DNA of 64,000 bases from Eledone cirrhosa (lineage: Eukaryota): positions 71,424,001-71,488,000 of the forward strand of contig OZ024746.1 in assembly GCA_964016885.1 (NCBI GenBank), read 5' to 3'. Of this stretch, positions 16,624-63,096 are shown one piece after another. A program made the translations under genes and the position numbers. Below the pieces are notes generated by a model, which was not told where the DNA came from, did no database searches, and saw only the letters and a program-made list of their open reading frames with translations. How positions within the stretch are numbered: position 1 is the first letter of the stretch; every line of letters begins with the position of its first letter.

Positions 16624-16769
16624 CGTATGTGTGTCAGTCTGTCTGTATGTGTGTATGTGTGCATATATAAATAAATATATATATATATATAATAGAGTCA
16701 CACACGAACGATATAGTGAATGGAAATATTTTTCAACCAGTTGAGATTTAACCTTGCAAATCGAAGACA

Positions 16770-17314: not shown

Positions 17315-17328
17315 CCACTAGATGGCGC
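17315..17328 (+). promoter_or_regulatory. CTCF-like motif CCACTAGATGGCGC
   Basis: Exact match to the CCASYAGRKGGCRS consensus. Confidence 0.5.
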
Positions 17329-17813: not shown

Positions 17814-17851
<38 letters not shown>

Positions 17852-18137
17852 ACATATACATACAAGTGTAAACAGCCGACGTGTCTTTTGTTGCAGCGAT
17901 CGGAGTATCTCGTTTGTCTGCAACAAAACCCACCACTTGCGTAGTTTCATCAATTAGAATTTATAGTACTACTGTTGGACCAATTGTTTGACCAACTGAA
18001 CAACCTAGTCGATAAATTAACGTGCAAATGACTGAACATTTCATAGACAAGTAATTCACAGTGACATTCAAACTGAGACAGTGACAAGACTGGTCCTTTG
18101 AGTTACAAGTATAATACATTTGTTTTTGCTGATTTAA

Positions 18138-18309
18138 CCCTTTAGCATTTACATTACACTATATTTACTATTGTGGTAAACAAGAGATTTTCATGTTATT
18201 TATTTTGAGAACAATATCTTAACATCAGTATGAGCAGCCGGTTACAACCGGTCTGAACAGAAAAAGGTGAGAATTCTGGCTGGATATGACTGGTTTAAAG
18301 GCTAAAGGG
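18138..18309. mobile_element. piggyBac-type MITE
   Basis: TTAA|CCCTTTAGC ... GCTAAAGGG|TTAA. Confidence 0.75.
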
Positions 18310-19322: not shown

Positions 19323-19360
<38 letters not shown>

Positions 19361-19507
19361 CAAACAACCAAACCGAGCATTATAATAAATGTTCGGTAAA
19401 CCGATACGTGCATATATATATATGTGTACATGTATGTATATATATATACATACTACTGTACGTCTGTATACATATATGTATGTACGTATACGTACATACA
19501 TACTTAC

Positions 19508-19542
<35 letters not shown>

Positions 19543-19755
19543 GAACGATCGACTTTCGTCAAATCGGACCGAGGAAACAATGTTTCCGTTGGTCTTTCCA
19601 ATTGCTAATACTATCTATCGGTCGCAACTCCAGGTAGAAGGAGCAACGTGAAATAAAGTGTCTTGCTCAAGGACATAACGCATCGCCCGGTCCAGGAATT
19701 GAACTCCCAACCTCACGATTGCGAATCCAGTTCTCTAACCACTCAGCCACACGCC

Positions 19756-20024
<269 letters not shown>

Positions 20025-20136
20025 GTATATATATGTAGGAGGTGAGTTTTATTGTAGTACAATAAAGCAATGCAGATATGTTGATTTAAAACTGCACTAT
20101 CCACAAGTGTTTTTTAGCCTTCATATCATGTTCTCC

Positions 20137-20207
20137 TGTTTTATCTGATGAAAACACAAATATTATTGCATGATGATGTTTGGTTTTGAAATGCGCATAA
20201 TAAAATA
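20137..20207 (+). ncRNA. Type I hammerhead ribozyme, solo copy of the 47-kb pLTR family (element ~20076-20240)
   Basis: TGTTTTAT-CTGATGA-stem II-GAA-ATGCGCAT-A-ATAAAATA; flanks match 46993-47157. Confidence 0.82.
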
Positions 20208-20610
20208 CATGGAACTCCTTTAACCATCTTTTGATCTTATATTATATGTATATATATATATATATTGTAAACACAAATTGCATAAAACCTTCCTGTATTA
20301 CAGCCCTACATTATATCCTAACGGAGAGTACGGGCAACATGCAGATAATATATGTCATGATGTGGTTAGCTAAGTATACAATTATTTATACAATTATTTA
20401 TTTGTATATGTATGTACACCTTAACTGTATGTTTGTGTTTGTACGTATATTTTACGTATGCATTTATGTGTGTATGTGATGTGTTATACGTATATATATG
20501 TATGTGAGTATGTATATATGTGTATGTGTATATATATATATATATATATGTATGTGAGTATGTATGTATGTGCGTGTGTGTGTATATATATATGTATATA
20601 TATGTATATG

Positions 20611-20686
<76 letters not shown>

Positions 20687-20809
20687 AAAGTTTTATTTAA
20701 AATTGTTGGGTTACAACAAGTAAATATTTTATAACTGATATAAAGCACTCAACAAGTTTTGGAGTAGATCTACGATATTAAACAAATGGAAACTATATTT
20801 ATAAAACCA

Positions 20810-20885
20810 TATTTATTTCATTATACATATTTCGGGGATACCATATTAAAAATATGGCATGCCTTCTTCAGATAAAATACAATAT
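20810..20885 (-). ncRNA. Type I hammerhead ribozyme, second copy of the 6.3-kb family (element ~20684-20925)
   Basis: Reverse complement reads TATTTTAT-CTGAAGA-AGGCATGCCATATT...AATATGGTATCCCC-GAAATATGTATA-ATGAAATA; differs from the 6.3-kb copy at free core position 7. Confidence 0.75.
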
Positions 20886-20984
20886 ATAAACAGTTTTATA
20901 AATAATTTTGACGTACCATAAATATTGATCAACTTTTATGTATGTATGTGTGTGTGTATGTGTGCGTGTATATATGTGTATAGA

Positions 20985-21625
20985 CTGAAAGTTGCTTCAT
21001 AAGATTGTAGCCAGATTTGCTCACGAACCCTCTGGTTCCAACTTCTCTGGCGAGAACTTTGACGCAGAAGTTGGCTTCCTTCAGACTATTGGTCAAACTG
21101 GCGTATTTTTCGGTCTTAAATACGTGTGCTTCTTTTATTCTCCTTTGAAATGGTAGGGTGTGTTCAATCAAAACCAGGTGTTTTGATGAACAGGAATGGA
21201 GTTCTGGTGATTTCTGGTTGTTTTGCTGACCCCGACAAGACTGCTGTACACTCCCAGTTGTCCACAATACTCAGAGGATTCGGTTCCTGTGTCCCGTATG
21301 GCATAGCCCTTCCTGATCATGATTTGCCGCCTCCTGTCGTATAGAATCTTGTTGGAGATTCTCGTACTACGGGTTTTACTTTTGTCGCACTTATCATATG
21401 TATGATCTCCTTAAGCACTTGCTTGTGCCACTACGTATACCTTCTTTGAGATAGTGCTACTCTGCATGAGCTCGGAATGTGTTCCACTGTCTGTCTACCC
21501 TGGCAGAGGGGATGCTCGGCGTTATCTGATTTGCTCCACTTCACTAGATTCGTATTCGTGGGCAGGAGATCATAGATAGATCCGAGAAGAAAAGTGATTC
21601 TAAGAGGCACGACATGCCACAGGTC
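20985..21625 (-). pseudogene. C-terminal remnant of an RLE-type non-LTR retrotransposon (Hero/NeSL-like): zinc knuckle plus restriction-like endonuclease
   Basis: PLCQGRQTVEHIPSSCRVALSQRRYT*WHKQVLK and HLVLIEHTLPF..EAHVFKTEKY..EVGTRGF. Confidence 0.8.
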
Positions 21626-21636
21626 ATATATATGTA

Positions 21637-21726
<90 letters not shown>

Positions 21727-21766
21727 TAGAAACACACGCATATATATATATATATATATATATATA

Positions 21767-21959
21767 GGAACGAGTAGGACCCCGACGGCTGAGCTCAAGT
21801 CGTTTCGACGGCTAATTCAGAATTGAGAATTAGCCGTCGAAACGGCTTGAGCTCAGCCGTCGGGGACCTACTCGTTCCTATTACCCACTCTACTACCCTA
21901 AGTATTGAGTACTTTGGTGCGTTATGGTCCACCTGGTTCCTTACCACATTTCCTCCGTT
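21767..21959. mobile_element. Same family, foldback copy in (TA)n
   Basis: Shared sequence with 5033-5301; inverted short arm. Confidence 0.8.
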
Positions 21960-21977
21960 ATATATATATATATATAT

Positions 21978-23685
21978 AAGAGAGTATTGAAGTTTGCTTG
22001 AAGCATTGTGGAACAATAAGTAAATATCTTTAAGTCGTTAGGAAGCCCCCACAATGCAAATGGGTAAATCTCCGAGTAACAAGGTCCGGTGGTGGAGAGA
22101 GAGATGTAATTGGGTATACGTTGAGATGCGTGGTGTGTATAAGATGTGTGAGATGTGTAGAATGAAGGGAAGAGTATAAAGGATAAAATAAAAATAACAA
22201 CACAAGAGAGAGTTACCTTGGGAGAGATTTAATAGTCCCTATATATTTCGGATTCACATGCATCAACTGGGTTTTTTTTCCGGGGTGGGGGAAAAGGTTG
22301 TCTGTCGCACAAGTCCGGAACGCGTCCTTCGCTGTTTGTTGTTTTGAATATCTGGGGTATTCGGCAGAGAGCGCGTGCGCGTGAAATGGGGTCGGTCGTA
22401 CAGAGGTCAGCGGCCGAATGAGGGAGTGGGATGGCGCTAGCTGTCAGTCCTCTCTCTGCCTGTTAGTTAAATGTTACTGTGCGTGTGTGTGCGTGTGTTG
22501 TTGTCTCGCTTGAGTGTGTGTGTGTGTGCGTGTGTTGTTGCCTTGTTCCTCTTTATTGGCAGTGTAGTATGTTCGTATGGTGGAATGCTACTGTGTGTGT
22601 GTGCGTGTGTGTGTGTAGTTGTCTCGTTTGCGTGTGTGCGTGTGTTGTGTGTTGTTGCATCGCTTGTTAACTTAAACCAGCCATCTCATTTCGCTTCTCT
22701 CTGATCGGTTGTTTATTTGCGGTCGCAGTCGTTTGATAAAAAGCGCCAACGTTTCTTTCAGTCGCTAGAATTGTGACAACGGGCCTTCCGTCTTTGTTTC
22801 CGCATTTGTCTATGTGTTTCCGGAAAGACGAGGCCCTGGTTTTAATGTGTTCCTTGATCCGGATGTGCAAAGGTCGAATTGTGCTACCTATGTAGTATTG
22901 GTTGCACCTGTCACATTCTATCTTATACACGACGTATGTGCGTAGGCAACAGTTCGCATGGCGTATTGGGCAGTCTCTGAGGGAGCATGCGTCAGTAGAT
23001 TTTTTCGGGTTTCCTGGAGAGGCATCTTCGTAGGGAGGGGCCCGAGTGGGCCAGGTGGATGAGGAGGCCCTCCCTCCGTATAGCCTTGCGGATAGCGTTG
23101 GTGGTTTTCTCGCCCAGGTGTGGCATTTTAAGGAAGCACTTGCCTTGGGTGCTTCTCTGTCTCTTGCGTCTGGTGTCTCCTATTCTGTCTGTGATCGAGG
23201 TAGGGTACCCGTTCGTCTCCAGCACCTCGAGGAATCGCTTGGTATGAGTGACACCACTCGCGGGATCGCTGCATCTGTTTTTGATTCGCGCGATCTCGTT
23301 CGTGATGTATCCTCTTTTGGCACTGTTAGGGAGGGCAGACTTGTAGTGAACGAATAGGTCCCTGCAGGCTGCCTTTCGGTAGAAGTTGCAGTGGATCCTT
23401 CCCCGTTTCGTGATGTTGATTCGGAAGTCGAGGAGGGCAAGTTGATGGATGTGAATCCGAAATATATAGGGACTATTAAATCTCTTCCAAGGTAACTCTC
23501 TCTTGTGTTGTTATTTTTATTTTATCCTTTATACTCTTACCTTCATTCTACACATCTCACACATCTTATACACACCACGCATCTCAACGTACACCCACTT
23601 ACATCTCTCTCTCCACCACCGGACCTTGTTACTCGGAGATTTACCCATTTGCATTGTCGAGGCTTCCAAACGACTTAAAGATATT

Positions 23686-23688
<3 letters not shown>
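21978..23688 (-). mobile_element. 5'-truncated Penelope-like retroelement with inverted pLTR, inserted in (TA)n
   Basis: RT thumb (LLDFRINI..FYRK..FVHYKSALP..NGYP), Cys linker and GIY-YIG (VVYKIECDRCNQYYIGSTIRPLHIRIKEH). 23440-23688 is an inverted copy of ~22020-22268. Confidence 0.9.
22667..23440 (-). pseudogene. PLE RT-thumb/GIY-YIG endonuclease fragment (frameshifted)
   Basis: ORF track pieces 22667-22930 and 22992-23225, plus manual translation. Confidence 0.85.
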
Positions 23689-23728
<40 letters not shown>

Positions 23729-24482
23729 TATGAACTATTGAAGTGCTTGATGACTTGAAATTTGAAAATGGGGGAATCTCAAACGCAGAAAATATCTGTA
23801 ACGATAGTCGATCACTATAAATAATAGCTATATCTGTATTTCACCCAACTTTCTAAGCTATTACTTACAGCTATCTACTACTGTTACCGTTATTTTCTGC
23901 GTTTGGGTTCTCCACTTTTCGTGAGTGTGTATATATATATATATGTGTGTATATATATATAAAAATTAGAAGAAACAAGGAACTGTGTGGTTACTTGATA
24001 AAGTGTATTTAGAAGTAAAAGGAAAACACAAACAAGGGACAGGTCCTCTTTTCAGCTGTCTGCTGGAGTTTACTGGCATTTCAACGCATTAAAGACAATA
24101 TGTCTATCTCCAGTGCGTCACTAATTTCAGCGGCATCGATCCCACTTGCCCGGAAAACCTATAAGGGCCATGGACACTGCCCCATCCTCCAAACTTACCA
24201 AACAAAGAAGATAAAACATACTTAACTATATCTAAATAGGCTCACTAAGGGATTGAACTCAAGACGAACAGCTACACAAGCACACCTAACACAACACCAA
24301 CAATTATATCGACTCTGCTATTGTCATGAGTTCATTACTTCGTGTATAACCAATACACAAGAATAAGTTTGCATGTGTGTGGTCGCGATTTGGTGTGTTG
24401 ATCTTGTCTCGTATTGTATACACACACACATATACATACATATATATATATATATGTATGTATGTATCTATCTATCTATCTA

Positions 24483-24601
<119 letters not shown>

Positions 24602-24993
24602 TATATATATATATATATATACGTATATACAATATCTATGTATCATTATGTATGTGGGGATTAGGGGGAGAAGAGAGGTATTGTGTTTATACATCCATAT
24701 GGTCCTGGGTTGTATCACACGTGTTTCTGAATGGTTGCGTAAGTACATCTGTTTGTGCACATCTCCATATGTATATATATATATATATATACATATATAC
24801 ATACATACATACACACACAAACACACATATATATATGTGTATGTATATATGTGTATATGTATATATGAGTACACACATATATGTATGTGTATATATACAC
24901 ACATACATATGTACATACACACACATACACGTAATCACGCACACACATATGTAAGAATGGTGTTCCGTTAAAGAATGGAGAGGAACCTCAATG

Positions 24994-25037
<44 letters not shown>

Positions 25038-25258
25038 GTACATATGTGCGTGTGTGTATGTATGTGTGCAGAATATCTGTCTGTTTGTGTGTGTATGAAA
25101 GCGTGGGTGAGGCTGTAAAATTGTAATTGTGCGTGGGTGTGTTTTTCTTACCCGCCTGCGTTTGTTTACAAGCAGTTATTATATCTCCAGGCGTGTCAAC
25201 AGGATGACCCCCCCCCCTTTCTCACACACAAAAATACACACATATATATATATATATT

Positions 25259-25325
<67 letters not shown>

Positions 25326-25327
<2 letters not shown>

Positions 25328-25709
25328 CGAAGGAGATGTGGTAAGGAACCAGATGGACCATAACGCACCAGAGTACTCAATACTTAGGGTAGTAGAGTGG
25401 GTAATAGGAAAAAGTATGACCCCCCCCCCCGCCGACGGCAGAGCTCAAGCCGTTTCGATGGCTCCACTCACTCCCTCATTGTTCTACAGGCAAGTTCAGC
25501 CACCCCTACCTCCCACCATTTGCCATGATAGACTTACTTGTGTTTACAACAAATTCTGACCAATCCTCTTGACAACTACAATCTTCCCATATAAGGAAGT
25601 ACCCCTTGATAAGTTCGGCTATATATTTACCAGGCTAAAAATTCTAATTTAGTCCAGAAATAGCCGTCGAAACGGCTTGAGCTCTGCCGTCGGGGTCATA
25701 CTTTTTCCT
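25326..25709. mobile_element. Same family, longest copy (contains the whole HHR)
   Basis: Minus arm 25326-~25463, plus arm to 25709; TA flanks. Confidence 0.8.
25601..25696 (+). ncRNA. Hammerhead ribozyme with U3-A8 core variant
   Basis: Stem I ACCCC/GGGGT; core TTGATAA (25606-25612); stem II CGGCTAT/ATAGCCG closed by G-C; GAAA (25669-25672); stem III ACGGC...GCCGT; GUC site at 25691. Confidence 0.65.
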
Positions 25710-25724
25710 ATATATATATATATA

Positions 25725-25937
25725 AGGCGTGTGGCTGGGTGGTTAGAGAATTGGATTCGCAATCGTAAGGTTGTGAGTTCGGTCCCTGGACCAGGCGATG
25801 CGTTATGTCCTTGAGCAAGACACTTTATTTCACGTTGCTCCTTCTACCTGGAGTTGCGACCGATAGATAGTATTAGCAATTGGTAAAACCAACGGAAACA
25901 TTGTTCCCTCGGTCCGATTTGACGAAAGTCAATCGTT

Positions 25938-25941
<4 letters not shown>
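25725..25941 (+). mobile_element. tRNA-derived CORE-like SINE; second copy at 19539-19757 (-), decayed head at ~56400-56495 (-)
   Basis: A-box TGGCTGGGTGG, B-box GAGTTCG, TCCTTGAGCAAGACACTT core; inserted in TA/CA tracts. Confidence 0.75.
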
Positions 25942-26013
<72 letters not shown>

Positions 26014-29132: not shown

Positions 29133-29929
29133 ATTATTTGCTTTATTTTGGATTGGCTGTATCTGTAGAGGGTCGGACGCCATGCTTTCCAGCATAGTTA
29201 CGTCCCTTTACGATCTGAGTTCAAATCCCGCCGAGGTTAACTTTGCCTTTCATCCTTACGGGGTCGATAAAATAAAGTACCAGTAATGCACTGGATAATT
29301 GCTGGCCTTGTGCCTAAAGTAGAAACAATTATTTGCTTTATTTTGGATTGGCAGTATCGGTAGAGGGTCGGACGCCATGCTTTCCAGCATAGTTACGTCC
29401 CTTTACGATCTGAGTTCAAATCCCGCCGAGGTTAACTTTGCCTTTCATCCTTACGGGGTCGATAAAATAAAGTACCAGTAATGCACTGGATAATTGCTGG
29501 CCTTGTGCCTAAAGTAGAAACAATTATTTGCTTTATTTTGGATTGGCAGTATCGGTAGAGGGTCGGACACCATGCTTTCCAGCATAGTTACGTCCCTTTA
29601 CGATCTGAGTTCAAATCCTGCCGAGGTTAACTTTGCCTTTCATCCTTACGGGGTCGATAAAATAAAGTACCAGTAATGCACTGGATAATTGCTGGCCTTG
29701 TGCCTAAAGTAGAAACAATTATTTGCTTTATTTTGGATTGGCAGTATCGGTAGAGGGTCGGACGCCATGCTTTCCAGCATAGTTACGTCCCTTTACGATC
29801 TGAGTTCAAATCCCGCCGAGGTTAACTTTGCCTTTCATCCTTACGGGGTCGATAAAATAAAGTACCAGTAATGCACTGGGTAATTGCTGGCCTTGTGCCT
29901 AAAGTAGAAACGATTATTTGCTTTATTTT
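29133..29929 (+). mobile_element. Four tandem SINE copies (195-bp unit = SINE + TSD)
   Basis: GATTGGC at 29151, 29346, 29541 and 29736; ATTATTTGCTTTATTTT present five times. Confidence 0.9.
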
Positions 29930-30280: not shown

Positions 30281-33200
30281 AAATATTGAAACAGTTATGT
30301 TATATAGTAGTGTGGTGTGGTGTTGACAGTAACAGATATTGAAACAGTTATGTTATATAGTAGTGTGGTGTAGACGGTAACAGATATTGAAACAGTTCTG
30401 TTGTATAGTAGTGTGGTGTAGACAGTAACAGATATTGAAACAGTTCTGTTATATAGTAGTGTGGTGTGGTGTTGACAGTAACAGATATTGAAACAGTTCT
30501 GTTATATAGTAGTGTAGTGTGGTGTAGACAGTAACAGATATTGAAACAGTTCTGTTGTATAGTAGTGTGGTGTGGTGTAGACAGTAAAAGATATTGAAAC
30601 AGTTCTGTTGTATAGTAGTGTGGTGTAGACAGTAACAGATATTGAAACAGTTCTGTTATATAGTAGTGTGGTGTTGACAGTAACAGATATTGAAACAGTT
30701 CTGTTATATAGTAGTGTGGTGTAGACAGTAACAGATATTGAAACAGTTCTGTTATATAGTAGTGTGGTGTAGACAGTAACAGATATTGAAACAGTTCTGT
30801 TGTATAGTAGTGTGGTGTTGTGTTGACAGTAACAGATATTGAAACAGTTCTGTTATATAGTAGTGTGGTGTAGACAGTAACAGATATTGAAACAGTTCTG
30901 TTGTATAGTAGTGTGGTGTGGTGTAGACAGTAACAGATATTGAAACACTTCTGTTGTATAGTAGTGTGGTGTTGTGTTGACAGTAACAGATATTGAAACA
31001 GTTCTGTTATATAGTAGTGTGGTGTAGACAGTAACAGATATTGAAACAGTTCTGTTGTATAGTAGTGTGGTGTGGTGTAGACAGTAACAGATATTGAAAC
31101 AGTTCTGTTGTATAGTAGTGTGGTGTGGTGTAGACAGTAACAGATATTGAAACAGTTCTGTTATATAGTAGTGTGGTGTTGTGTTGACAGTAACAGATAT
31201 TGAAACAGTTCTGTTATATAGTTGTGTGGTGTAGACAGTAACAGATATTGAAACAGTTCTGTTGTATAGTAGTGTGGTGTGGTGTAGACAGTAACAGATA
31301 TTGAAACAGTTCTGTTATATAGTAGTGTGGTGTGGTGTTGACAGTAACAGATATTGAAACAGTTCTGTTGTATAGTAGTGTGGTGTTGACAGTAACAGAT
31401 ATTGAAACAGTTCTGTTATATAGTAGTGTGGTGTAGACAGTAACAGATATTGAAACAGTTCTGTTATATAGTAGTGTGGTGTAGACAGTAACAGATATTG
31501 AAACAGTTCTGTTATATAGTAGTGTGGTGTAGACAGTAACAGATATTGAAACAGTTCTGTTATATAGTAGTGTGGTGTGGTGTAGACAGTAACAGATATT
31601 GAAACAGTTCTGTTGTATAGTAGTGTGGTGTGGTGTTGACAGTAACAGATATTGAAACAGTTCTGTTGTATAGTAGTGTAGTGTGGTGTTGACAGTAACA
31701 GATATTGAAACAGTTCTGTTATATAGTAGTGTGGTGTAGACAGTAACAGATATTGAAACAGTTCTGTTGTATAGTAGTGTGGTGTAGACAGTAACAGATA
31801 TTGAAACAGTTCTGTTATATAGTAGTGTGGTGTAGACAGTAACAGATATTGAAACAGTTCTGTTATATAGTAGTGTGGTGTGGTGTAGACAGTAACAGAT
31901 ATTGAAACAGTTCTGTTGTATAGTAGTGTGGTGTGGTGTTGACAGTAACAGATATTGAAACAGTTCTGTTGTATAGTAGTGTGGTGTGGTGTTGACAGTA
32001 ACAGATATTGAAACAGTTCTGTTATATAGTAGTCTGGTGTGGTGTTGACAGTAACAGATATTGAAACAGTTCTGTTATATAGTAGTGTGGTGTGGTGTTG
32101 ACAGTAACAGATATTGAAACAGTTCTGTTATATAGTAGTGTGGTGTAGACAGTAACAGATATTGAAACAGTTCTGTTATATAGTAGTGTGGTGTGGTGTA
32201 GACAGTAACAGATATTGAAACAGTTCTGTTGTATAGTAGTGTGGTGTGGTGTTGACAGTAACAGATATTGAAACAGTTCTGTTGTATAGTAGTGTGGTGT
32301 GGTGTTGACAGTAACAGATATTGAAACAGTTCTGTTATATAGTAGTCTGGTGTGGTGTTGACAGTAACAGATATTGAAACAGTTCTGTTATATAGTAGTG
32401 TGGTGTAGACAGTAACAGATATTGAAACAGTTCTGTTATATAGTAGTGTGGTGTGGTGTTGACAGTAACAGATATTGAAACAGTTCTGTTATATAGTAGT
32501 GTGGTGTAGACGGTAACAGATATTGAAACAGTTCTGTTGTATAGTAGTGTGGTGTAGACAGTAACAGATATTGAAACAGTTCTGTTATATAGTAGTGTGG
32601 TGTAGACAGTAACAGATATTGAAACAGTTCTGTTATATAGTAGTGTGGTGTGGTGTTGACAGTAACAGATATTGAAACAGTTCTGTTGTATAGTAGTGTG
32701 GTGTGGTGTTGACAGTAACAGATATTGAAACAGTTCTGTTATATAGTAGTGTGGTGTTGACAGTAACAGATATTGAAACAGTTCTGTTATATAGTAGTGT
32801 GGTGTGGTGTTGACAGTAACAGATATTGAAACAGTTCTGTTGTATAGTAGTGTGGTGTGGTGTTGACAGTAACAGATATTGAAACAGTTCTGTTGTATAG
32901 TAGTGTGGTGTGGTGTTGACAGTAACAGATATTGAAACAGTTCTGTTATATAGTAGTGTGGTGTAGACAGTAACAGATATTGAAACAGTTCTGTTGTATA
33001 GTAGTGTAGTGTGGTGTAGACAGTAACAGATATTGAAACAGTTCTGTTGTATAGTAGTGTGGTGTGGTGTAGACAGTAACAGATATTGAAACAGTTCTGT
33101 TATATAGTAGTGTGGTGTAGACAGTAACAGATATTGAAACAGTTCTGTTATATAGTAGTGTGGTGTAGACAGTAACAGATATTGAAACAGTTCTGTTGTA

Positions 33201-36200
33201 TAGTAGTGTGGTGTGGTGTAGACAGTAACAGATATTGAAACAGTTCTGTTGTATAGTAGTGTGGTGTGGTGTAGACAGTAACAGATATTGAAACAGTTCT
33301 GTTATATAGTAGTGTGGTGTGGTGTTGACAGTAACAGATATTGAAACAGTTCTGTTGTATAGTAGTGTGGTGTTGTGTTGACAGTAACAGATATTGAAAC
33401 AGTTCTGTTATATAGTAGTGTGGTGTGGTGTTGACAGTAACAGATATTGAAACAGTTCTGTTATATAGTAGTGTGGTGTGGTGTTGACAGTAACAGATAT
33501 TGAAACAGTTCTGTAATATAGTAGTGTGGTGTGGTGTAGACAGTAACAGATATTGAAACAGTTCTGTTATATAGTAGTGTGGTGTGGTGTAGACAGTAAC
33601 AGATATTGAAACAGTTCTGTTATATAGTAGTGTGGTGTGGTGTTGACAGTAACAGATATTGAAACAGTTCTGTTGTATAGTAGTGTGGTGTTGACAGTAA
33701 CAGATATTGAAGCAGTTCTGTTATATAGTAGTGTAGTGTGGTGTTGACAGTAACAGATATTGAAACAGTTCTGTTATATAGTAGTGTAGTGTGGTGTAGA
33801 CAGTAACAGATATTGAAACAGTTCTGTTATATAGTAGTGTAGTGTGGTGTAGACAGTAACAGATATTGAAACAGTTCTGTTATATAGTAGTGTGGTGTGG
33901 TGTTGACAGTAACAGATATTGAAACAGTTCTGTTGTATAGTAGTGTGGTGTTGACAGTAACAGATATTGAAACAGTTCTGTTATATAGGAGTGTGGTGTT
34001 GTGTTGACAGTAACAGATATTGAAACAGTTCTGTTATATAGTAGTGTAGTGTGGTGTAGACAGTAACAGATATTGAAACAGTTCTGTTATATAGTAGTGT
34101 GGTGTGGTGTTGACAGTAACAGATATTGAAACAGTTCTGTTGTATAGTAGTGTGGTGTTGACAGTAACAGATATTGAAACAGTTCTGTTATATAGTAGTG
34201 TAGTGTGGTGTTGACAGTAACAGATATTGAAACAGTTCTGTTGTATAGTAGTGTGGTGTGGTGTTGACAGTAACAGATATTGAAACAGTTCTGTTATATA
34301 GTAGTGTAGTGTGGTGTTGACAGTAACAGATATTGAAACAGTTCTGTTGTATAGTAGTGTGGTGTGGTGTTGACAGTAACAGATATTGAAACAGTTCTGT
34401 TATATAGTAGTGTGGTGTGGTGTAGACAGTAACAGATATTTAAACAGTTCTGTTGTATAGTAGTGTGGTGTGGTGTTGACAGTAACAGATATTGAAACAG
34501 TTCTGTTATATAGTAGTGTGGTGTGGTGTTGACAGTAACAGATATTTAAACAGTTCTGTTATATAGTAGTGTGGTGTGGTGTAGACAGTAACAGATATTG
34601 AAACAGTTCTGTTATATAGTAGTGTGGTGTGGTGTAGACAGTAACAGATATTGAAACAGTTCTGTTATATAGTAGTGTGGTGTGGTGTAGACAGTAACAG
34701 ATATTGAAACAGTTCTGTTATATAGTAGTGTGGTGTGGTGTAGACAGTAACAGATATTGAAACAGTTCTGTTATATAGTAGTGTGGTGTGGTGTAGACAG
34801 TAACAGTTATTGAAACAGTTCTGTTATATAGTAGTGTGGTGTGGTGTTGACAGTAACAGATATTGAAACAGTTCTGTTATATAGTAGTGTGGTGTAGACA
34901 GTAACAGATATTGAAACAGTTCTGTTATATAGGAGTGTAGTGTGGTGTAGACAGTAACAGATATTGAAACAGTTCTGTTATATAGTAGTGTGGTGTTGAC
35001 AGTAACAGATATTGAAACAGTTCTGTTATATAGGAGTGTGGTGTGGTGTAGACAGTAACAGATATTGAAACAGTTCTGTTATATAGTAGTGTAGTGTGGT
35101 GTAGACAGTAACAGATATTGAAACAGTTCTGTTATATAGTAGTGTGGTGTTGACAGTAACAGATATTGAAACAGTTCTGTTATATAGGAGTGTGGTGTGG
35201 TGTAGACAGTAACAGATATTGAAACAGTTCTGTTATATAGTAGTGTAGTGTGGTGTAGACAGTAACAGATATTGAAACAGTTCTGTTATATAGTAGTGTG
35301 GTGTTGACAGTAACAGATATTGAAACAGTTCTGTTATATAGGAGTGTGGTGTGGTGTAGACAGTAACAGATATTGAAACAGTTCTGTTATATAGGAGTGT
35401 GGTGTTGTGTAGACAGTAACAGATATTGAAACAGTTCTGTTATATAGTAGAGTGGTGTGGTGTAGACAGTAACAGATATTGAAACAGTTCTGTTATATAG
35501 TAGTGTGGTGTGATGTAGACAGTAACAGATATTGAAACAGTTCTGTTATATAGTAGTGTGGTGTGGTGTTGACAGTAACAGATATTGAAACAGTTCTGTT
35601 ATATAGTAGTGTGGTGTGGTGTTGACAGTAACAGATATTGAAACAGTTCTGTAATATAGTAGTGTGGTGTAGTGTTGACAGTAACAGATATTGCAACAGT
35701 TCTGTTATATAGTAGTGTGGTGTTGTGTTGACAGTAACAGATATTGAAACAGTTCTGTTATATAGTAGTGTGGTGTGGTGTTGACAGTAACAGATATTGA
35801 AACAGTTCTGTTATATAGTAGTGTGGTGTGGTGTTGACAGTAACAGATATTGAAACAGTTCTGTTATATAGTAGTGTGGTGTTGACAGTAACAGATATTG
35901 AAACAGTTCTGTTATATAGTAGTGTGGTGTGGTGTTGACAGTAACAGATATTGAAACAGCTCTGTTATATAGTAGTGTGGTGTTGACAGTAACAGATATT
36001 GAAACAGTTCTGTTATATAGTAGTGTGGTGTGGTGTTGACAGTAACAGATATTGAAACAGTTCTGTTATATAGTAGTGTGGTGTTGACAGTAACAGATAT
36101 TGAAACAGTTCTGTTATATAGTAGTGTGGTGTGGTGTTGACAGTAACAGATATTGAAACAGTTCTGTTATATAGTAGTGTGGTGTGGTGTTGACAGTAAC

Positions 36201-36645
36201 AGATATTGAAACAGTTCTGTTATATAGTAGTGTGGTGTTGACAGTAACAGATATTGAAACAGTTCTGTTATATAGTAGTGTGGTGTGGTGTTGACAGTAA
36301 CAGATATTGAAACAGTTCTGTTGTATAGTAGTGTAGTGTGGTGTTGACAGTAACATATATTGAAACAGTTCTGTTATATAGTAGTGTGGTGTGGTGTTGA
36401 CAGTAACAGATATTGAAACAGTTCTGTTATATAGTAGTGTGGTGTGGTGTTGACAGTAACAGATATTGAAACCGTTCTATTGTATAGTAGTGTAGTGTAG
36501 ACAGTAACAGATATTGAAACAGTTCTATTGTATAGTAGTGTAGTGTTGACAGTAACAGATATATAAACAGTTCTATTGTATAGTAGTGTAGTGTTGACAG
36601 TAACAGATATATAAACAGTTCTATTGTATAGTAGTGTGGTGTGTA
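30281..36645. repeat. 48/53-bp minisatellite, ~125 copies
   Basis: GACAGTAACAGATATTGAAACAGTTCTGTTRTATAGTAGTGTGGT(GTGGT)GTW. Confidence 0.95.
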
Positions 36646-36744
36646 AAATAACAGATATGTTACGGTGTTGAGGTCAGCAATAATAGAAACATTGTGCTGA
36701 TGATGGTAAAGATGTAATATTTTGTTATTTCGATGTTAGATAAT

Positions 36745-39518: not shown

Positions 39519-39654
39519 GCTCAGACCTTAACATTCTGTGATAATAATTGTAATGTTTATTACCCAAGAACATATCGTATATAGGTCAATATACGCATCT
39601 GTACACACATACGCCTACGCACGTTTATACATACATACACATATATATATATAT

Positions 39655-39827
39655 GAAAAAGTATGACCCCGACGGCAGAGCTCAAGCCGTTTCGACAGCT
39701 ATTTCTGGACTATTCCAGAAATAGCCGTGGGGGCCATACTTTTTCCTATTTCCCACTCTACGACCCTAAGTATTGAGTACGCTGGTGCGTTATGGTCCAT
39801 TTGGTTCTTTACCACAATTCCTTTGTT
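39655..39827. mobile_element. Same family, foldback copy
   Basis: Shared sequence; TA flanks. Confidence 0.75.
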
Positions 39828-40261: not shown

Positions 40262-42180
40262 TAACCACAGCGCCACTCCACCACACCACCACTACACCAC
40301 AGCGCCACTCCACCACACCACCACTCCACCACACCATCACTACACCACAACGCCACTCCACCACACCACCACTCCACCACACCACCACTCCACCACACCA
40401 CCACTCCACCACACCACCACTCCACCACACCACCACTCCACCACACCACCACTACACCACAGCGCCACTCCACCACACCACTACACCACAACGCCACTAC
40501 ACCACAGCGCCACTCCACCACACCACCACTACACCACACCACCACAGCGCCACTCCACCACAACGGCACTCCACCACACCACCACTACACCACATCACCA
40601 CTCCACCACACCGCCACTACACCACAGCGCCACTCCACCACACCACTACACCACACCACGACTACACCACACCACCACTCCCCCCCCCCCCCCCCCCCCA
40701 CCACTACACCACAGCGCCACTCCACCACACCACCACTCCACCACACCACCACTACACCCAAGCACCACTCCACCACACCACCACTCCACACCACCACTAC
40801 ACCACAGCGCCACTCCACCACACCATCACTCCACCACACCACCACTCCACCACATCACCACTACACCACAACGCCACTACACCACACCGCCACTCCACCA
40901 CACCACGACTACACCACAACGCCACTCCACCACACCACCACTCCACCACCACACCACTACACCACAGCGCCACTACACCACACCACGACTACACCACACC
41001 GCCACTATACCACAACACCACTACACCACACCACCACACCACCACTACGCCACTACACCACACCAACACTCCACCACTCCGCCACTCCACCACACCACCA
41101 CACCACTACTCCACCTCTACGGCACTACACCACACCGCCACTCCACCACTACGCTACTACACCACACCGCCACGATACCCCAACACCACTACACCACACC
41201 ACCACACCACCACTACGCCACTACACCACACCAACACTCCACCACTCCGCCACTCCACCACACCACCACACCACTACTCCACCTCTACGGCACTACACCA
41301 CACCGCCACTCCACCACTACGCTACTACACCACACCGCCACGATACCCCAACACCACTACACCACACCACCACACCACCACTACGCCACTACACCACACC
41401 AACACTCCACCACTCCGCCACTCCACCACACCACCACACCACTACTCCACCTCTACGGCACTACACCACACCGCCACTCCACCACTACGCTACTACACCA
41501 CACCGCCACGATACCCCAACACCACTACACCACACCACCACACCAACACTCCACCACTCCACCACACCACTACTCCACCACTACGCTACTACACCACACC
41601 GCCACTCCACCTCTACGCCACTCCACCACACCACCACACCACTACTCCACCTCTACTCCACTACACCACACCGCCACTCCACCACACCACCACTCCACCA
41701 AACCACCACTACACCACAGCGCCACTACACCACACCACCACTCCACCACACCGCCACTATACCACTCCACCACTCCACCACTCCACCACACCACTACTCC
41801 ACCACTACGCTACTACACCACACCGCCACTCCACCTCTACGCCACTCCACTACACCACCACTCCACCACACCACCACTCCTCCACCACACCACTACTCCA
41901 CCACTACGCTACTACACCACACCGACACTCCACCTCTACGCCACTCCACTACACCGCCACTCCACTACACCACCACACCACCACTACGCCACTACACCAC
42001 ACCAACACTCCACCACTCCGAAACTCCACCACTCCACCACACTACTACTCCACCACAACGCTACTACACCACACCGCCACTCCACTACACCGCCACTCCA
42101 CTACACCGCCACTCCACCACACCACCACTCCACCACACCACCACTCCACCACTACGCTACTACACCACTCTGCCACTTTA
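40262..42180. repeat. CCACT/CACCA cryptic minisatellite with a 168-bp higher-order triplication
   Basis: GATACCCCAAC at 41174, 41342 and 41510. Confidence 0.85.
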
Positions 42181-47209: not shown

Positions 47210-47301
47210 CGAAGGAAATGTGGTAAGGAACCAGGTGGACCATAACGCACTAAAGTACTCAATACTTAGGGTAGTAGAGTGGGTAATAGGTCCTACTCGT
47301 T

Positions 47302-56955: not shown

Positions 56956-57127
56956 CTCTGTCTCTCGTGTTCACTAGAGAGGAATGGTCTACACCATATA
57001 AAAATGGCGAAGACACGTCGTTACTACGGTGTGTCTAAGACTCCGCCGGGATTTACGGATACATACCTACACACACACGCGCACACACACATCTATATAT
57101 ATATATATATATATGCATATATATATA

Positions 57128-57177
<50 letters not shown>

Positions 57178-57406
57178 TATGTATATATACATACATACAT
57201 ATATATATATCTATATCTATCTATATATATATATATATATAATAATAATAAGAATAAATGCTCTGAAATAGCGATATATATGTGAATATAGACATAGAAT
57301 ATTCGAAAATATTCTGTATGTTTATAATAAACATTTTGAAGACCTAATCGCTATAGAATAGAATACGTCACGTATTACAATTAGATTCTCGATAAAAGCA
57401 AGGGAA

Positions 57407-57449
57407 GTAATCTACGCGTTTCATTCTCGTTAGAAATCATCAGGACTAC
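57407..57449 (-). ncRNA. Type I hammerhead ribozyme (leftmost of 6 minus-strand copies)
   Basis: Reverse complement of the motif at 59193-59235. Confidence 0.88.
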
Positions 57450-59192
57450 ATATCCAGTGCTTTTATCGAGAATGACACAGCTAGAGACTTATAGAATACT
57501 TAGCTGTGTACAGGAACTGGTTTGAAAGAGCGGTTGCCGGTCCGGCAGAAATTAGAAATTGGAATAAATGCTCTGAAATAGCGATATATATGTGAATATA
57601 GACATAGAATATTCGAAAATATTCTGTATGTTTATAATAAACATTTTGAAGACCTAATCGCTATAGAATAGAATACGTCACGTATTACAATTAGATTCTC
57701 GATAAAAGCAAGGGAAGTAATCTACGCGTTTCATTCTCGTTAGAAATCATCAGGACTACATATCCAGTGCTTTTATCGAGAATGACACAGCTAGAGACTT
57801 ATAGAATACTTAGCTGTGTACAGGAACTGGTTTGAAAGAGCGGTTGCCGGTCCGGCAGAAATTAGAAATTGGAATAAATGCTCTGAAATAGCGATATATA
57901 TGTGAATATAGACATAGAATATTCGAAAATATTCTGTATGTTTATAATAAACATTTTGAAGACCTAATCGCTATAGAATAGAATACGTCACGTATTACAA
58001 TTAGATTCTCGATAAAAGCAAGGGAAGTAATCTACGCGTTTCATTCTCGTTAGAAATCATCAGGACTACATATCCAGTGCTTTTATCGAGAATGACACAG
58101 CTAGAGACTTATAGAATACTTAGCTGTGTACAGGAACTGGTTTGAAAGAGCGGTTGCCGGTCCGGCAGAAATTAGAAATTGGAATAAATGCTCTGAAATA
58201 GCGATATATATGTGAATATAGACATAGAATATTCGAAAATATTCTGTATGTTTATAATAAACATTTTGAAGACCTAATCGCTATAGAATAGAATACGTCA
58301 CGTATTACAATTAGATTCTCGATAAAAGCAAGGGAAGTAATCTACGCGTTTCATTCTCGTTAGAAATCATCAGGACTACATATCCAGTGCTTTTATCGAG
58401 AATGACACAGCTAGAGACTTATAGAATACTTAGCTGTGTACAGGAACTGGTTTGAAAGAGCGGTTGCCGGTCCGGCAGAAATTAGAAATTGGAATAAATG
58501 CTCTGAAATAGCGATATATATGTGAATATAGACATAGAATATTCGAAAATATTCTGTATGTTTATAATAAACATTTTGAAGACCTAATCGCTATAGAATA
58601 GAATACGTCACGTATTACAATTAGATTCTCGATAAAAGCAAGGGAAGTAATCTACGCGTTTCATTCTCGTTAGAAATCATCAGGACTACATATCCAGTGC
58701 TTTTATCGAGAATGACACAGCTAGAGACTTATAGAATACTTAGCTGTGTACAGGAACTGGTTTGAAAGAGCGGTTGCCGGTCCGGCAGAAATTAGAAATT
58801 GGAATAAATGCTCTGAAATAGCGATATATATGTGAATATAGACATAGAATATTCGAAAATATTCTGTATGTTTATAATAAACATTTTGAAGACCTAATCG
58901 CTATAGAATAGAATACGTCACGTATTACAATTAGATTCTCGATAAAAGCAAGGGAAGTAATCTACGCGTTTCATTCTCGTTAGAAATCATCAGGACTACA
59001 TATCCAGTGCTTTTATCGAGAATGACACAGCTAGAGACTTATAGAATACTTAGCTGTGTACAGGAACTGGTTTGAAAGAGCGGTTGCCGGTCCGGCAGAA
59101 ATTAGAAATTGGAATAAATGCTCTGAAATAGCGATATATATGTGAATATAGACATAGAATATTCGAAAATATTCTGTATAAGCACTGGATAT

Positions 59193-59235
59193 GTAGTCCT
59201 GATGATTTCTAACGAGAATGAAACGCGTAGATTAC
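59193..59235 (+). ncRNA. Type I hammerhead ribozyme (first of 12 plus-strand copies, repeated every 310 bp)
   Basis: Stem I GTAGTC/GATTAC; core CTGATGA (59199-59205); stem II TTCT-AACG-AGAA; GAAA (59220-59223); palindromic stem III ACGCGT; predicted cleavage after GUA at 59229. Confidence 0.88.
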
Positions 59236-62200
59236 TTCCCTTGCTTTTATCGAGAATCTAATTGTAATACGTGACGTATTCTATTCTATAGCGATTAGGT
59301 CTTCAAAATGTTTATTATAAACATACAGAATATTTTCGAATATTCTATGTCTATATTCACATATATATCGCTATTTCAGAGCATTTATTCCAATTTCTAA
59401 TTTCTGCCGGACCGGCAACCGCTCTTTCAAACCAGTTCCTGTACACAGCTAAGTATTCTATAAGTCTCTAGCTGTGTCATTCTCGATAAAAGCACTGGAT
59501 ATGTAGTCCTGATGATTTCTAACGAGAATGAAACGCGTAGATTACTTCCCTTGCTTTTATCGAGAATCTAATTGTAATACGTGACGTATTCTATTCTATA
59601 GCGATTAGGTCTTCAAAATGTTTATTATAAACATACAGAATATTTTCGAATATTCTATGTCTATATTCACATATATATCGCTATTTCAGAGCATTTATTC
59701 CAATTTCTAATTTCTGCCGGACCGGCAACCGCTCTTTCAAACCAGTTCCTGTACACAGCTAAGTATTCTATAAGTCTCTAGCTGTGTCATTCTCGATAAA
59801 AGCACTGGATATGTAGTCCTGATGATTTCTAACGAGAATGAAACGCGTAGATTACTTCCCTTGCTTTTATCGAGAATCTAATTGTAATACGTGACGTATT
59901 CTATTCTATAGCGATTAGGTCTTCAAAATGTTTATTATAAACATACAGAATATTTTCGAATATTCTATGTCTATATTCACATATATATCGCTATTTCAGA
60001 GCATTTATTCCAATTTCTAATTTCTGCCGGACCGGCAACCGCTCTTTCAAACCAGTTCCTGTACACAGCTAAGTATTCTATAAGTCTCTAGCTGTGTCAT
60101 TCTCGATAAAAGCACTGGATATGTAGTCCTGATGATTTCTAACGAGAATGAAACGCGTAGATTACTTCCCTTGCTTTTATCGAGAATCTAATTGTAATAC
60201 GTGACGTATTCTATTCTATAGCGATTAGGTCTTCAAAATGTTTATTATAAACATACAGAATATTTTCGAATATTCTATGTCTATATTCACATATATATCG
60301 CTATTTCAGAGCATTTATTCCAATTTCTAATTTCTGCCGGACCGGCAACCGCTCTTTCAAACCAGTTCCTGTACACAGCTAAGTATTCTATAAGTCTCTA
60401 GCTGTGTCATTCTCGATAAAAGCACTGGATATGTAGTCCTGATGATTTCTAACGAGAATGAAACGCGTAGATTACTTCCCTTGCTTTTATCGAGAATCTA
60501 ATTGTAATACGTGACGTATTCTATTCTATAGCGATTAGGTCTTCAAAATGTTTATTATAAACATACAGAATATTTTCGAATATTCTATGTCTATATTCAC
60601 ATATATATCGCTATTTCAGAGCATTTATTCCAATTTCTAATTTCTGCCGGACCGGCAACCGCTCTTTCAAACCAGTTCCTGTACACAGCTAAGTATTCTA
60701 TAAGTCTCTAGCTGTGTCATTCTCGATAAAAGCACTGGATATGTAGTCCTGATGATTTCTAACGAGAATGAAACGCGTAGATTACTTCCCTTGCTTTTAT
60801 CGAGAATCTAATTGTAATACGTGACGTATTCTATTCTATAGCGATTAGGTCTTCAAAATGTTTATTATAAACATACAGAATATTTTCGAATATTCTATGT
60901 CTATATTCACATATATATCGCTATTTCAGAGCATTTATTCCAATTTCTAATTTCTGCCGGACCGGCAACCGCTCTTTCAAACCAGTTCCTGTACACAGCT
61001 AAGTATTCTATAAGTCTCTAGCTGTGTCATTCTCGATAAAAGCACTGGATATGTAGTCCTGATGATTTCTAACGAGAATGAAACGCGTAGATTACTTCCC
61101 TTGCTTTTATCGAGAATCTAATTGTAATACGTGACGTATTCTATTCTATAGCGATTAGGTCTTCAAAATGTTTATTATAAACATACAGAATATTTTCGAA
61201 TATTCTATGTCTATATTCACATATATATCGCTATTTCAGAGCATTTATTCCAATTTCTAATTTCTGCCGGACCGGCAACCGCTCTTTCAAACCAGTTCCT
61301 GTACACAGCTAAGTATTCTATAAGTCTCTAGCTGTGTCATTCTCGATAAAAGCACTGGATATGTAGTCCTGATGATTTCTAACGAGAATGAAACGCGTAG
61401 ATTACTTCCCTTGCTTTTATCGAGAATCTAATTGTAATACGTGACGTATTCTATTCTATAGCGATTAGGTCTTCAAAATGTTTATTATAAACATACAGAA
61501 TATTTTCGAATATTCTATGTCTATATTCACATATATATCGCTATTTCAGAGCATTTATTCCAATTTCTAATTTCTGCCGGACCGGCAACCGCTCTTTCAA
61601 ACCAGTTCCTGTACACAGCTAAGTATTCTATAAGTCTCTAGCTGTGTCATTCTCGATAAAAGCACTGGATATGTAGTCCTGATGATTTCTAACGAGAATG
61701 AAACGCGTAGATTACTTCCCTTGCTTTTATCGAGAATCTAATTGTAATACGTGACGTATTCTATTCTATAGCGATTAGGTCTTCAAAATGTTTATTATAA
61801 ACATACAGAATATTTTCGAATATTCTATGTCTATATTCACATATATATCGCTATTTCAGAGCATTTATTCCAATTTCTAATTTCTGCCGGACCGGCAACC
61901 GCTCTTTCAAACCAGTTCCTGTACACAGCTAAGTATTCTATAAGTCTCTAGCTGTGTCATTCTCGATAAAAGCACTGGATATGTAGTCCTGATGATTTCT
62001 AACGAGAATGAAACGCGTAGATTACTTCCCTTGCTTTTATCGAGAATCTAATTGTAATACGTGACGTATTCTATTCTATAGCGATTAGGTCTTCAAAATG
62101 TTTATTATAAACATACAGAATATTTTCGAATATTCTATGTCTATATTCACATATATATCGCTATTTCAGAGCATTTATTCCAATTTCTAATTTCTGCCGG

Positions 62201-62797
62201 ACCGGCAACCGCTCTTTCAAACCAGTTCCTGTACACAGCTAAGTATTCTATAAGTCTCTAGCTGTGTCATTCTCGATAAAAGCACTGGATATGTAGTCCT
62301 GATGATTTCTAACGAGAATGAAACGCGTAGATTACTTCCCTTGCTTTTATCGAGAATCTAATTGTAATACGTGACGTATTCTATTCTATAGCGATTAGGT
62401 CTTCAAAATGTTTATTATAAACATACAGAATATTTTCGAATATTCTATGTCTATATTCACATATATATCGCTATTTCAGAGCATTTATTCCAATTTCTAA
62501 TTTCTGCCGGACCGGCAACCGCTCTTTCAAACCAGTTCCTGTACACAGCTAAGTATTCTATAAGTCTCTAGCTGTGTCATTCTCGATAAAAGCACTGGAT
62601 ATGTAGTCCTGATGATTTCTAACGAGAATGAAACGCGTAGATTACTTCCCTTGCTTTTATCGAGAATCTAATTGTAATACGTGACGTATTCTATTCTATA
62701 GCGATTAGGTCTTCAAAATGTTTATTATAAACATACAGAATATTTTCGAATATTCTATGTCTATATTCACATATATATATATATATATATGCATATG

Positions 62798-62854
<57 letters not shown>

Positions 62855-62855
<1 letters not shown>

Positions 62856-63045
62856 AGAACAAAGAGGGTGTGGTAAGAAACCAGATGGACCATAACGTAC
62901 CAGAGGCCTCGATATTTAGGGTAGTAGAGTGGGTAATAGGAAAAGAGTCAGGACCCCGACGGCTGAGCTCCAGCCGTTTCGACAGCTAGATCCGACCTGT
63001 CGATCGAAACGGCCGGAGCTCAGCCGTCGGGGTCCTGACTCTTTT

Positions 63046-63048
<3 letters not shown>
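62855..63048. mobile_element. Same family (diverged), foldback copy
   Basis: GACCCCGACGGCTGAGCTCCAGCCGTTTCG and its inverse; TA flanks. Confidence 0.75.

Positions 63049-63096
<48 letters not shown>

Follow-up and report, generated by a model that had tools for sequence, protein, structure and literature searches.

Back-to-back arms of a 310-bp hammerhead repeat in a cephalopod genome point to a probable PLE-mediated insertion of a non-LTR retrozyme

How does a tandem repeat that carries a predicted self-cutting RNA, and no protein, reach new places in a genome? The question is raised by positions 57252-62778 of a 64,000-nucleotide stretch of Eledone cirrhosa DNA (the window), in which a sequence-only reading had described about 18 tandem 310-bp units, each with a type I hammerhead ribozyme and none with an ORF. 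The period is borne out, being exactly 310 bp with zero mismatches inside either arm; the longest ORF that recurs with the 310-bp unit has 30 aa, and the GC content of the unit is 34.5%. The number of copies also stands, since the array comprises 17.8 units and 18 hammerhead cores, but their head-to-tail uniformity does not: the array consists of two divergent arms, with 6.2 units on the minus strand and 11.6 on the plus strand (Table 1). This internal inversion, which had been missed, is the most informative feature of the array. At its 3' end the A arm runs from the AT-alternating stretch of the unit (132-139) into the (TA)n flank, whereas the B arm extends further by a "tail", a term used as in the available text of the PLE literature, including PMC3846280 and PMC11167929. 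The left and right flanks do not match each other. Our main reading, to which we assign a probability of roughly 70%, is that the array is a non-autonomous, PLE-mobilised non-LTR retrozyme which was inserted by twin-primed rolling-circle reverse transcription.

Table 1. Coordinates of the features in the window. Unit position 1 is window position 59230, the base directly 3' of the predicted cleavage site.
Feature	Position	Strand	Remarks
Left flank	57095..57251		(TA)n target tract, terminal short (TAA)n run
B arm, tail-bearing	57252..59179	-	1,928 bp, 6.22 identical units, 6 cores
B arm ends, RNA sense			5' = unit position 94 (junction); 3' = position 161
PLE-type tail, unit positions 140-161	57252..57273	-	one array end only
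Junction-proximal minus-strand hammerhead (predicted)	58957..58999	-	6 copies on B arm
Predicted minus-strand cleavage	between 58963 and 58962	-	core motif
Inversion junction, 5'-to-5', inside (TA)n	59179..59180		blunt: gap 0, overlap 0
A arm, tail-less	59180..62778	+	3,599 bp, 11.61 identical units, 12 cores
A arm ends			5' = unit position 261 (junction); 3' = position 139
First plus-strand type I hammerhead (predicted)	59193..59235	+	12 copies, one per 310 bp
Predicted plus-strand cleavage	after 59229	+	motif and helices
Predicted monomer/circle, 310 nt	59230..59539	+	fold z -3.9 vs shuffles
Long duplex prolonging stem I, about 18 bp	59470..59570	+	z -4.6
Right flank	62779..62855		(TA)n/(CA)n microsatellite

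The helices of the plus-strand hammerhead, as read by hand, comprise a stem I of 6 bp, the core CUGAUGA, a GUA triplet, a stem II of 4 bp below a U.U pair with the loop GAAA, and a palindromic stem III of 2 bp. In the computed fold they form as expected when the core is kept open, and except for the U.U at 10.1-11.1 they fit the canonical type I description in the accessible part of PMC4209133. Motif and helices predict the same cleavage site as had been proposed, and the hand-read core and helices likewise agree with one putative type I hammerhead per unit. The Rfam search suggested by the sequence-only reading turned out negative: across the window there were 0 matches at the gathering score, Hammerhead_1 is absent from the 6 matches at E<=10, and the best ribozyme match was Hammerhead_HH9 (15.8 bits compared to a cut-off of 52, E 1.1). 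A gathering match is no part of the published definition of non-LTR retrozymes, which used descriptors. Since Rfam remains below gathering, the hammerhead call rests on the core motif and the hand-read helices. A pattern search found 4,225 occurrences of the 32-nt hammerhead core in the genome, compared to 0 for the reversed control, and the core motif is thus not due to chance. Eight array-wide changes lie within the hammerhead, none of them at the 13 core positions (p ~0.06, simple arithmetic). The predicted hammerhead is weak, with a weak stem II and a score far under the Rfam cut-offs. Contigs of 340 nt were present in runs X1 and X2, that of X1 being self-closing; tandem DNA also yields circular contigs.

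The array belongs to a family of more than 1,200 dispersed insertions. Genome-wide, 1,240 A-end junctions and 1,034 B-end junctions at position 165 were counted, with 0 for the controls; a count of 5,009 units covers units with G at 295 only. Two divergent arms, corresponding to the 5'-truncated copy that lies inverted at the 5' end of PLE-type insertions, were found in 66 of the 77 insertions examined. The ends of the arms are confined to two regions of the unit. All 62 measured B ends lie at 161-172 (39 of them at 165), and the A end is at 128-139 in 16/16 insertions that had been selected by criteria other than the A end. The B end therefore exceeds the A end (~139) by 22-33 nt, which is the tail, and it does so at one end only. 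TA-rich sequence is found on both sides in 53/60 insertions. Non-LTR retrozymes are characterised by the lack of LTR, PBS and PPT and, where target site duplications occur, by a length of these above 4 bp. The unit has no LTR, and target site duplications are unreadable inside (TA)n. The element itself is not a PLE, as it has no RT/GIY-YIG ORF. The junctions, in contrast to the fixed 3' ends, are scattered, since the 132 arm ends fall on 106 different 5' positions. Microhomology of 1-5 nt is present in 38/65 junctions, and microhomology of at least 2 nt in 28 of 48 insert-free ones, compared to 0.185 by chance. Only 2/132 of the 5' ends lie within 3 nt of the cleavage site, which is no enrichment and, like the weak predicted hammerhead, counts against the main reading; the apparent 5' truncations at this site in L057, L063, L069 and L097 are alignment-edge artefacts. 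One of the arms is longer by more than one unit in 28, and the other in 18, of the 66 two-armed insertions. That either arm may be the longer one excludes fold-back self-copying of one arm on the other.

Together, the tail, the TA target, the inverted arm and the array-wide variants support what had been claimed about the origin of the array, namely that it belongs to a young family of non-LTR retrozymes which is copied by a rolling circle with an enzyme borrowed from a PLE, with the addition that some arrays suggest multimeric templates. We envisage that the hammerhead strand of an array would be transcribed and that 310-nt monomers would be released, probably by dimeric hammerheads, and ligated into a circle. 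As PLE biochemistry suggests, an RT/GIY-YIG protein of a PLE may then bind the RNA near positions 130-172, and both strands of the (TA)n tract would be cut. Each DNA end would prime a cDNA, one at ~139 and the other at 161-172, so that the tail would equal the difference between both priming positions; here the product is seen and the enzyme is putative. Both cDNAs would traverse several units of a template that in most cases is single and homogeneous, for which one monomeric circle is the best explanation, before ending at the scattered positions that are seen in the insertions. Joining of the cDNA ends, often with 1-5 nt of microhomology, would finally produce the divergent arms. In a minority of insertions the template would be multimeric, and a few of the long arms would have expanded later in DNA.

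The variants within the arrays bear on the nature of the template. We found 102 array-wide, 72 single and 14 intermediate variants in the arrays examined, the singletons amounting to 3.3e-4 per bp. One alternative retains PLE twin priming, but has as its usual template a long uncleaved transcript of a donor array, linear or multimeric and circular, monomer circles being rare or absent. It would fit the weak hammerhead, and also the accessible text of PMC11167929, in which uncleaved RNA is the dominant substrate in vitro and insertion persists with hammerhead mutants. Moreover, L069, L078 and L091 (3/62 complete two-armed arrays) have non-fixed variants that occur in both arms at the same round of copying, and L091 switches haplotype after two units, again in both arms. 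Because of this in-register sharing and the switch, a single monomer circle cannot produce these arrays. However, such sharing in three arrays compares to 45 unshared variants in the complete two-armed arrays, and each of the 23 array-wide haplotypes that occur in 65 arrays, 16 of them seen once, would require a one-unit bottleneck. For 232T>C, whose 10 copies genome-wide are the 8/8 units of L077 and two singletons on other haplotypes, whole-genome pattern counts in one assembly revealed no multimeric donor, and the donor of 173T>C in L078 was likewise not found in one assembly. Finally, 276G occurs in runs and never isolated among the first 100 of 834 matches. We therefore consider a long transcript unlikely as the usual template. 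A donor was also sought for 88A>T, which is array-wide in L098, L134 and L136 and is also found in L135, an old copy, and as a singleton in L133; the L133 unit lacks an upstream hammerhead, and therefore no donor is established.

Three further alternatives are less likely still. PLE-type insertions might at first be short, with one or two units, and later undergo expansion and homogenisation in DNA through unequal crossing-over and gene conversion. The available text of bioRxiv 10.64898/2026.07.22.740005 discusses this satellite route, and L050, L051 and L073, in which blocks are duplicated or variants have intermediate frequencies, would suit it. It is nevertheless improbable as the general explanation: intermediate variants are few compared to single and fixed ones, the inverted arms share the same haplotype in 60/61 arrays (expected 0.22), and both arms exceed one unit in 56/66 two-armed insertions, despite arrays that are nearly unmutated. 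Extrachromosomal DNA circles, if copied by a rolling circle at DNA level and inserted where a TA tract had broken, with no RNA step, would probably also yield homogeneous multimers and microhomology joints. Yet the ends fixed at two unit positions and the PLE tail both refer to the hammerhead-sense RNA. The same applies to two strand-specific features of the variants: array-wide changes at confidently paired sites preserve pairing of the hammerhead strand, G.U included, in 6/6 cases, compared to 4/25 for singletons (p 3e-4), and singletons are biased towards T>C (17, compared to 4 A>G, p 0.026). This makes DNA circles a very improbable source. As for an assembly artefact, a collapsed repeat or a fold-back chimera, long perfect repeats are difficult to assemble, and L058 contains a gap of Ns together with a local duplicate. 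It is hardly credible, however, in view of the 77 loci, which have flanks, junctions and haplotypes of their own, of the mutually unlike flanks and asymmetric arm ends in the window, and of contigs from run X5 in which the unit gives way to TA runs at 59368 (position 139) and at 59399 (position 170).

A tentative extension of the main reading, which we think somewhat more doubtful than probable, is that one RNA circle is copied simultaneously by the two RTs of a PLE dimer and that A-to-I-edited circles return to the germ line, the edit becoming fixed array-wide. A>G makes up 7/24 of the array-wide changes, compared to 4/72 singletons (p 0.005), and each of the five changes that create a wobble pair is A>G (P 0.0007 if the singleton spectrum is assumed, 0.053 if a flat one is). 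Most pair-keeping array-wide A>G changes fall in the long duplex that prolongs stem I. One of the changes, 276A>G, recurs on 4 haplotype backgrounds, has 834 copies, which come in runs among the first 100, and lies in a UAG context, which is preferred by ADAR. Selection for mild wobble pairs combined with recombination may explain the pattern instead. If the extension is true, the family would preserve in the genome a record of individual RNA molecules, with their edits and RT errors.

PLEs co-occur with the family in the genome. All 150 GIY-YIG candidates scored are above the cut-off, there are RT and EN fragments with hammerhead motifs of their own, and a GIY-YIG-encoding fragment in the window likewise has two arms, a tail and the TA layout. 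At 30 GIY-YIG loci +/-1.5 kb, which represent a few families only, no pLTR is homologous to the unit, the sole unit match, in L146, being an inserted older retrozyme. In 30 of 5,307 relatives no ORF is joined to the tail motif. These searches yielded no partner PLE. The available text of PMC11167929 describes a PLE protein that can cut and extend both strands and that initiates at two internal positions, one on each side of the tail; PMC3846280, as far as accessible, considers that head-to-head PLE inversions possibly arise via self-priming on an antisense template.

By its sequence, the array fits the non-LTR retrozymes. Those of corals, mussels and the axolotl (Cervera and de la Pena 2020, PMC7229834, accessible text) are likewise tandem non-coding units of 150-450 bp with a GC content below 50% and one type I hammerhead per unit, in genomes that contain PLEs; in the axolotl, HHR_Amex2 likewise carries a U.U pair at its stem II base, and its cleavage improves in the dimer. 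Cleavage and circles were demonstrated there, whereas our family is known from DNA. In the 2020 paper and its review, as available, reverse transcription of the circle into tandem cDNA by a PLE partner is a hypothesis. The two divergent arms, fixed ends and tail distinguish the present family, and the words "inverted" and "orientation" have 0 occurrences in the accessible text of PMC7229834. Vertebrate non-LTR retrozymes (bioRxiv 10.64898/2026.07.22.740005, accessible text) have the same unit size, a hammerhead per unit and a proposed PLE dependence. That link is based on co-occurrence and pLTR homology, whereas here it is the insertion signature, and no pLTR homologue was found at our 30 loci. 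The accessible preprint text leans to local amplification for the tandems, samples no mollusc, reports cleavage of 1/9 Xenopus dimers and has 0 occurrences of "tail" and "junction". In the freely accessible main texts searched, we found no description of two-arm insertions in retrozymes and no cephalopod retrozyme.

The family ties retrozymes to the PLE machinery by mechanism, and thus bears on the spread of tandem hammerhead repeats in animal genomes. Because it is young, each insertion retains its ends, junction and template haplotype. It marks both priming sites on the RNA, and the 310-nt unit offers a substrate for in vitro work. Moreover, every insertion forms a perfect palindrome on the scale of kilobases, and as such is a likely source of dsRNA and instability. 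In LINE-1 twin priming, too, both target ends prime, resulting in an inverted 5' part and a microhomology joint. The two parts that L1 copies, however, come from one linear polyadenylated RNA and do not overlap, whereas in our family the complete unit recurs many times in either arm and poly(A) is absent. The EN+ PLEs Penelope/Poseidon, Neptune and Naiad (10.1101/2021.04.23.441226, PMC3846280, PMC11167929, available text) likewise show an inverted 5'-truncated copy, a (TA)n bias, microhomology joints, two RT start sites and cutting and extension of both strands, with a tail of 30-40 bp at one end compared to 22-33 nt here. Unlike them, our family has no ORF, and both of its arms are multimeric, with up to 20 or more units; such back-to-back arms seem to record how self-cutting RNA circles may enter animal genomes as DNA.

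The 310-bp period of the sequence-only reading is exact, with 0 mismatches. The single uniform head-to-tail array that it had described is split into two opposed arms, whose 3' ends, on the hammerhead-sense strand, both face (TA)n flanks. Numbered from the first base after the predicted cleavage site (position 1 = 59230), the right arm (A) ends at 139 and the left arm (B), which carries a tail present at one array end only, ends at 161. The unit has a GC content of 34.5%, and the longest ORF repeating with it is 30 aa.

Features of the window
Feature	Position	Strand	Remarks
Left arm (tail-bearing)	57252-59179	-	reverse complement of unit; 6.22 units, 6 hammerhead cores
Right arm	59180-62778	+	11.61 units, 12 hammerhead cores
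Inter-arm junction	59179/59180		blunt; arms diverge from it on the hammerhead-sense strand
GIY-YIG/RT PLE fragment	21976-23692		broken, frameshifted
GIY-YIG-encoding part	22742-22999	-	22.9 bits, cut-off 22.6
3' end and its inverted repeat	22016-22268, 23440-23692		253 bp
Short TA-inserted family	62856-63050, 21764-21948, 25326-25711, 5044-5290, 39651-39827, 47219-47290
Type I hammerhead-like motifs, three other families	20139, 47055, 43564, 26289	+, +, -, -
Tandem repeat	29133-29929		195-bp unit, 4.1 copies, 98% alike
Large minisatellites	30283-36658, 10990-14545, 40264-42152		periods 53, 12, 16 bp

The type I core and helices proposed earlier agree with our analysis, activity being a prediction from sequence and folding; the suggested Rfam search did not call a hammerhead in the window. 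The predicted parts are a 6-bp stem I, CUGAUGA, a stem II with a U.U pair above its 4 bp, GAAA, a stem III that is a 2-bp palindrome, and GUA. A long duplex continues stem I (fold z -4.6; monomer fold z -3.9). Stem III segments of two copies pair over 6 bp (computed, -9.5 kcal/mol), the kind of pairing that dimeric cleavage requires according to PMC4209133. Axolotl HHR_Amex2 likewise has a U.U pair; PMC7229834 gives 22% cleavage for it as a monomer and better cleavage as a dimer. As to other repeats, the motif type found at 26289 also lies after a GIY-YIG ORF in loci L081, L082 and L095, and the 195-bp tandem unit is presumably SINE-like.

The two-armed insertions are real. Besides the window, 76 further loci were parsed, 10 chosen by hammerhead, 60 by A end (the first matches on contig C1) and 6 by variant. 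After exclusion of L049b (L050, seen twice), L058b (a local duplicate) and L135 (an old diverged copy), and merging of a duplicated junction in L041, 77 insertions remained, 66 with the divergent layout and 11 with a single arm. In 61 of the 77 the A-end position follows from how the locus was chosen; in all 16 insertions not so chosen it lies at 128-139. B ends fall at 161-172 in 62/62 measured cases (four more ran off the fetched stretch), and flanking sequence is TA-rich on both sides in 53/60. The 5' ends are scattered (106 distinct positions among 132; uniformity p 0.10). Arm medians are 3.2 and 4.5 units, and either arm can be the longer. Junctions overlap by 1-5 nt in 38/65 and by 17 nt in one, are blunt in nine, hold 1-29 extra bases in 16 and 272 bp of another multicopy element in one; microhomology exceeds chance (28/48 junctions vs 0.185 expected). 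The 272 bp (L051:1649-1920, between the arms), whose 96-98% alike copies cluster on contig C25 at 19-24 Mb, possibly reflect a template jump. The two arrays that have 173T>C in each arm, L078 and L175, both have a tail arm that stops at 172, adjoining the variant. The tail end of L073 (C1:97461503-97476482) lies ~14 kb from the junction, ~45 units if continuous. Duplication at the DNA level later affected L050, L051 and L073.

Counted per array and variant, where four or more copies were covered, substitutions in 219,559 aligned bases were array-wide in 102 cases, single in 72 and intermediate in 14. The hammerhead haplotype is identical between arms in 60/61 arrays, compared to 0.22 expected for independent templates, and 65 arrays carry 23 array-wide haplotypes, 16 seen once. 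A variant filling both arms must have passed through one unit, a passage that a monomeric circle would supply. Of the 10 genomic copies of 232T>C, eight fill L077 (8/8 units) and the other two are singletons whose haplotypes are unrelated; thus, it has no multimeric donor in this assembly. The second variant checked for donors, 88A>T, fills three arrays and is therefore not private. Non-fixed variants common to the same round of both arms occur in 3/62 complete two-armed arrays. One of the three, L091, changes from one haplotype to another after two units in each arm. These arrays require multimeric templates or coupled template switching. Unshared variants number 45 in 56,551 doubly covered bases. 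We estimate that ~10-20% of insertions stem from multimers if donors were as variable as present arrays, and more if many singletons postdate insertion or reflect assembly errors.

Judged by its substitutions, the template unit behaves as folded hammerhead-sense RNA, since array-wide changes keep pairing and spare the hammerhead core. Pairing is kept at confidently paired sites by 6/6 array-wide changes and 4/25 singletons. Eight array-wide changes lie inside the hammerhead: at position 7, in loop II, in stem I without loss of the pair, and at 10.1, where U.U becomes A-U. None is in the core, which has three singletons. Singletons comprise 17 T>C vs 4 A>G (p 0.026), an excess as would be expected from U.dG errors of an RT. 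A>G makes up 7/24 array-wide changes vs 4/72 singletons; five of the array-wide ones sit in duplexes. 276A>G arises on four haplotype backgrounds, and the first 100 of its 834 genomic matches form 13 runs with 0 isolated copies. Both the excess and the runs are expected if single circles underwent A-to-I editing and were then copied by rolling circle, a possibility that we put at roughly one in three. Selection favouring mild wobble pairs, together with recombination, would yield the same pattern less neatly.

The genome has 4,225 copies of the 32-nt core found in the window (control 0). From 5,009 units with G at 295, which make up 101/534 units in loci chosen by array end, the total is probably ~15,000-26,000 units. 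Exact junctions with TA runs (1,240 A-end, 1,034 position-165 B-end) suggest roughly 1,500-2,000 dispersed insertions. Among 5,307 tail-motif matches, the 30 examined (L101-L130) are older retrozyme-like families of 316-320 bp that have the tail motif, TA ends and unit positions ~60-200 in common with the 310-bp unit; their hammerhead is different, with a longer stem III, and ribozyme replacement is possible. Sequencing runs X1-X20 (17 studies, 18 organism codes) contain 65-100% of the unit's words, which may indistinguishably reflect close relatives, mixed samples, cross-contamination or horizontal spread.

In the main texts of openly accessible papers, we found no description of a cephalopod retrozyme or of two-armed retrozyme insertions, a layout that may already be familiar to repeat curators; PMC8490949 contributed nothing further. 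The 310-bp family fits non-LTR retrozymes by sequence and would work like them, with two of their defining features, cleavage and circRNA, predicted for it. Rolling-circle RT by a PLE (Penelope-like element) is already proposed as a hypothesis in PMC7229834 and PMC7761336, and the two-armed insertions make it a mapped, testable mechanism. The window's GIY-YIG/RT PLE fragment is an internal control with the same layout: its 3' end is copied inverted, the left arm alone has ~40 extra bases, and there are TA runs at either side. The short TA-inserted family, which consists mainly of paired inverted arms that differ in length by ~80 bp, probably represents PLE ends. A search of 30 GIY-YIG loci for related sequence found no partner PLE. 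Frangieh et al. (PMC11167929) showed that a PLE protein, which is modelled as a dimer, cuts and extends both strands, beginning synthesis at two internal RNA sites bracketing the tail. Finally, PLE insertions are described, in Craig et al. and in PMC3846280, by an inverted 5'-truncated copy, a tail at one end and a (TA)n bias; the 310-bp insertions have all three, and this is the PLE signature.
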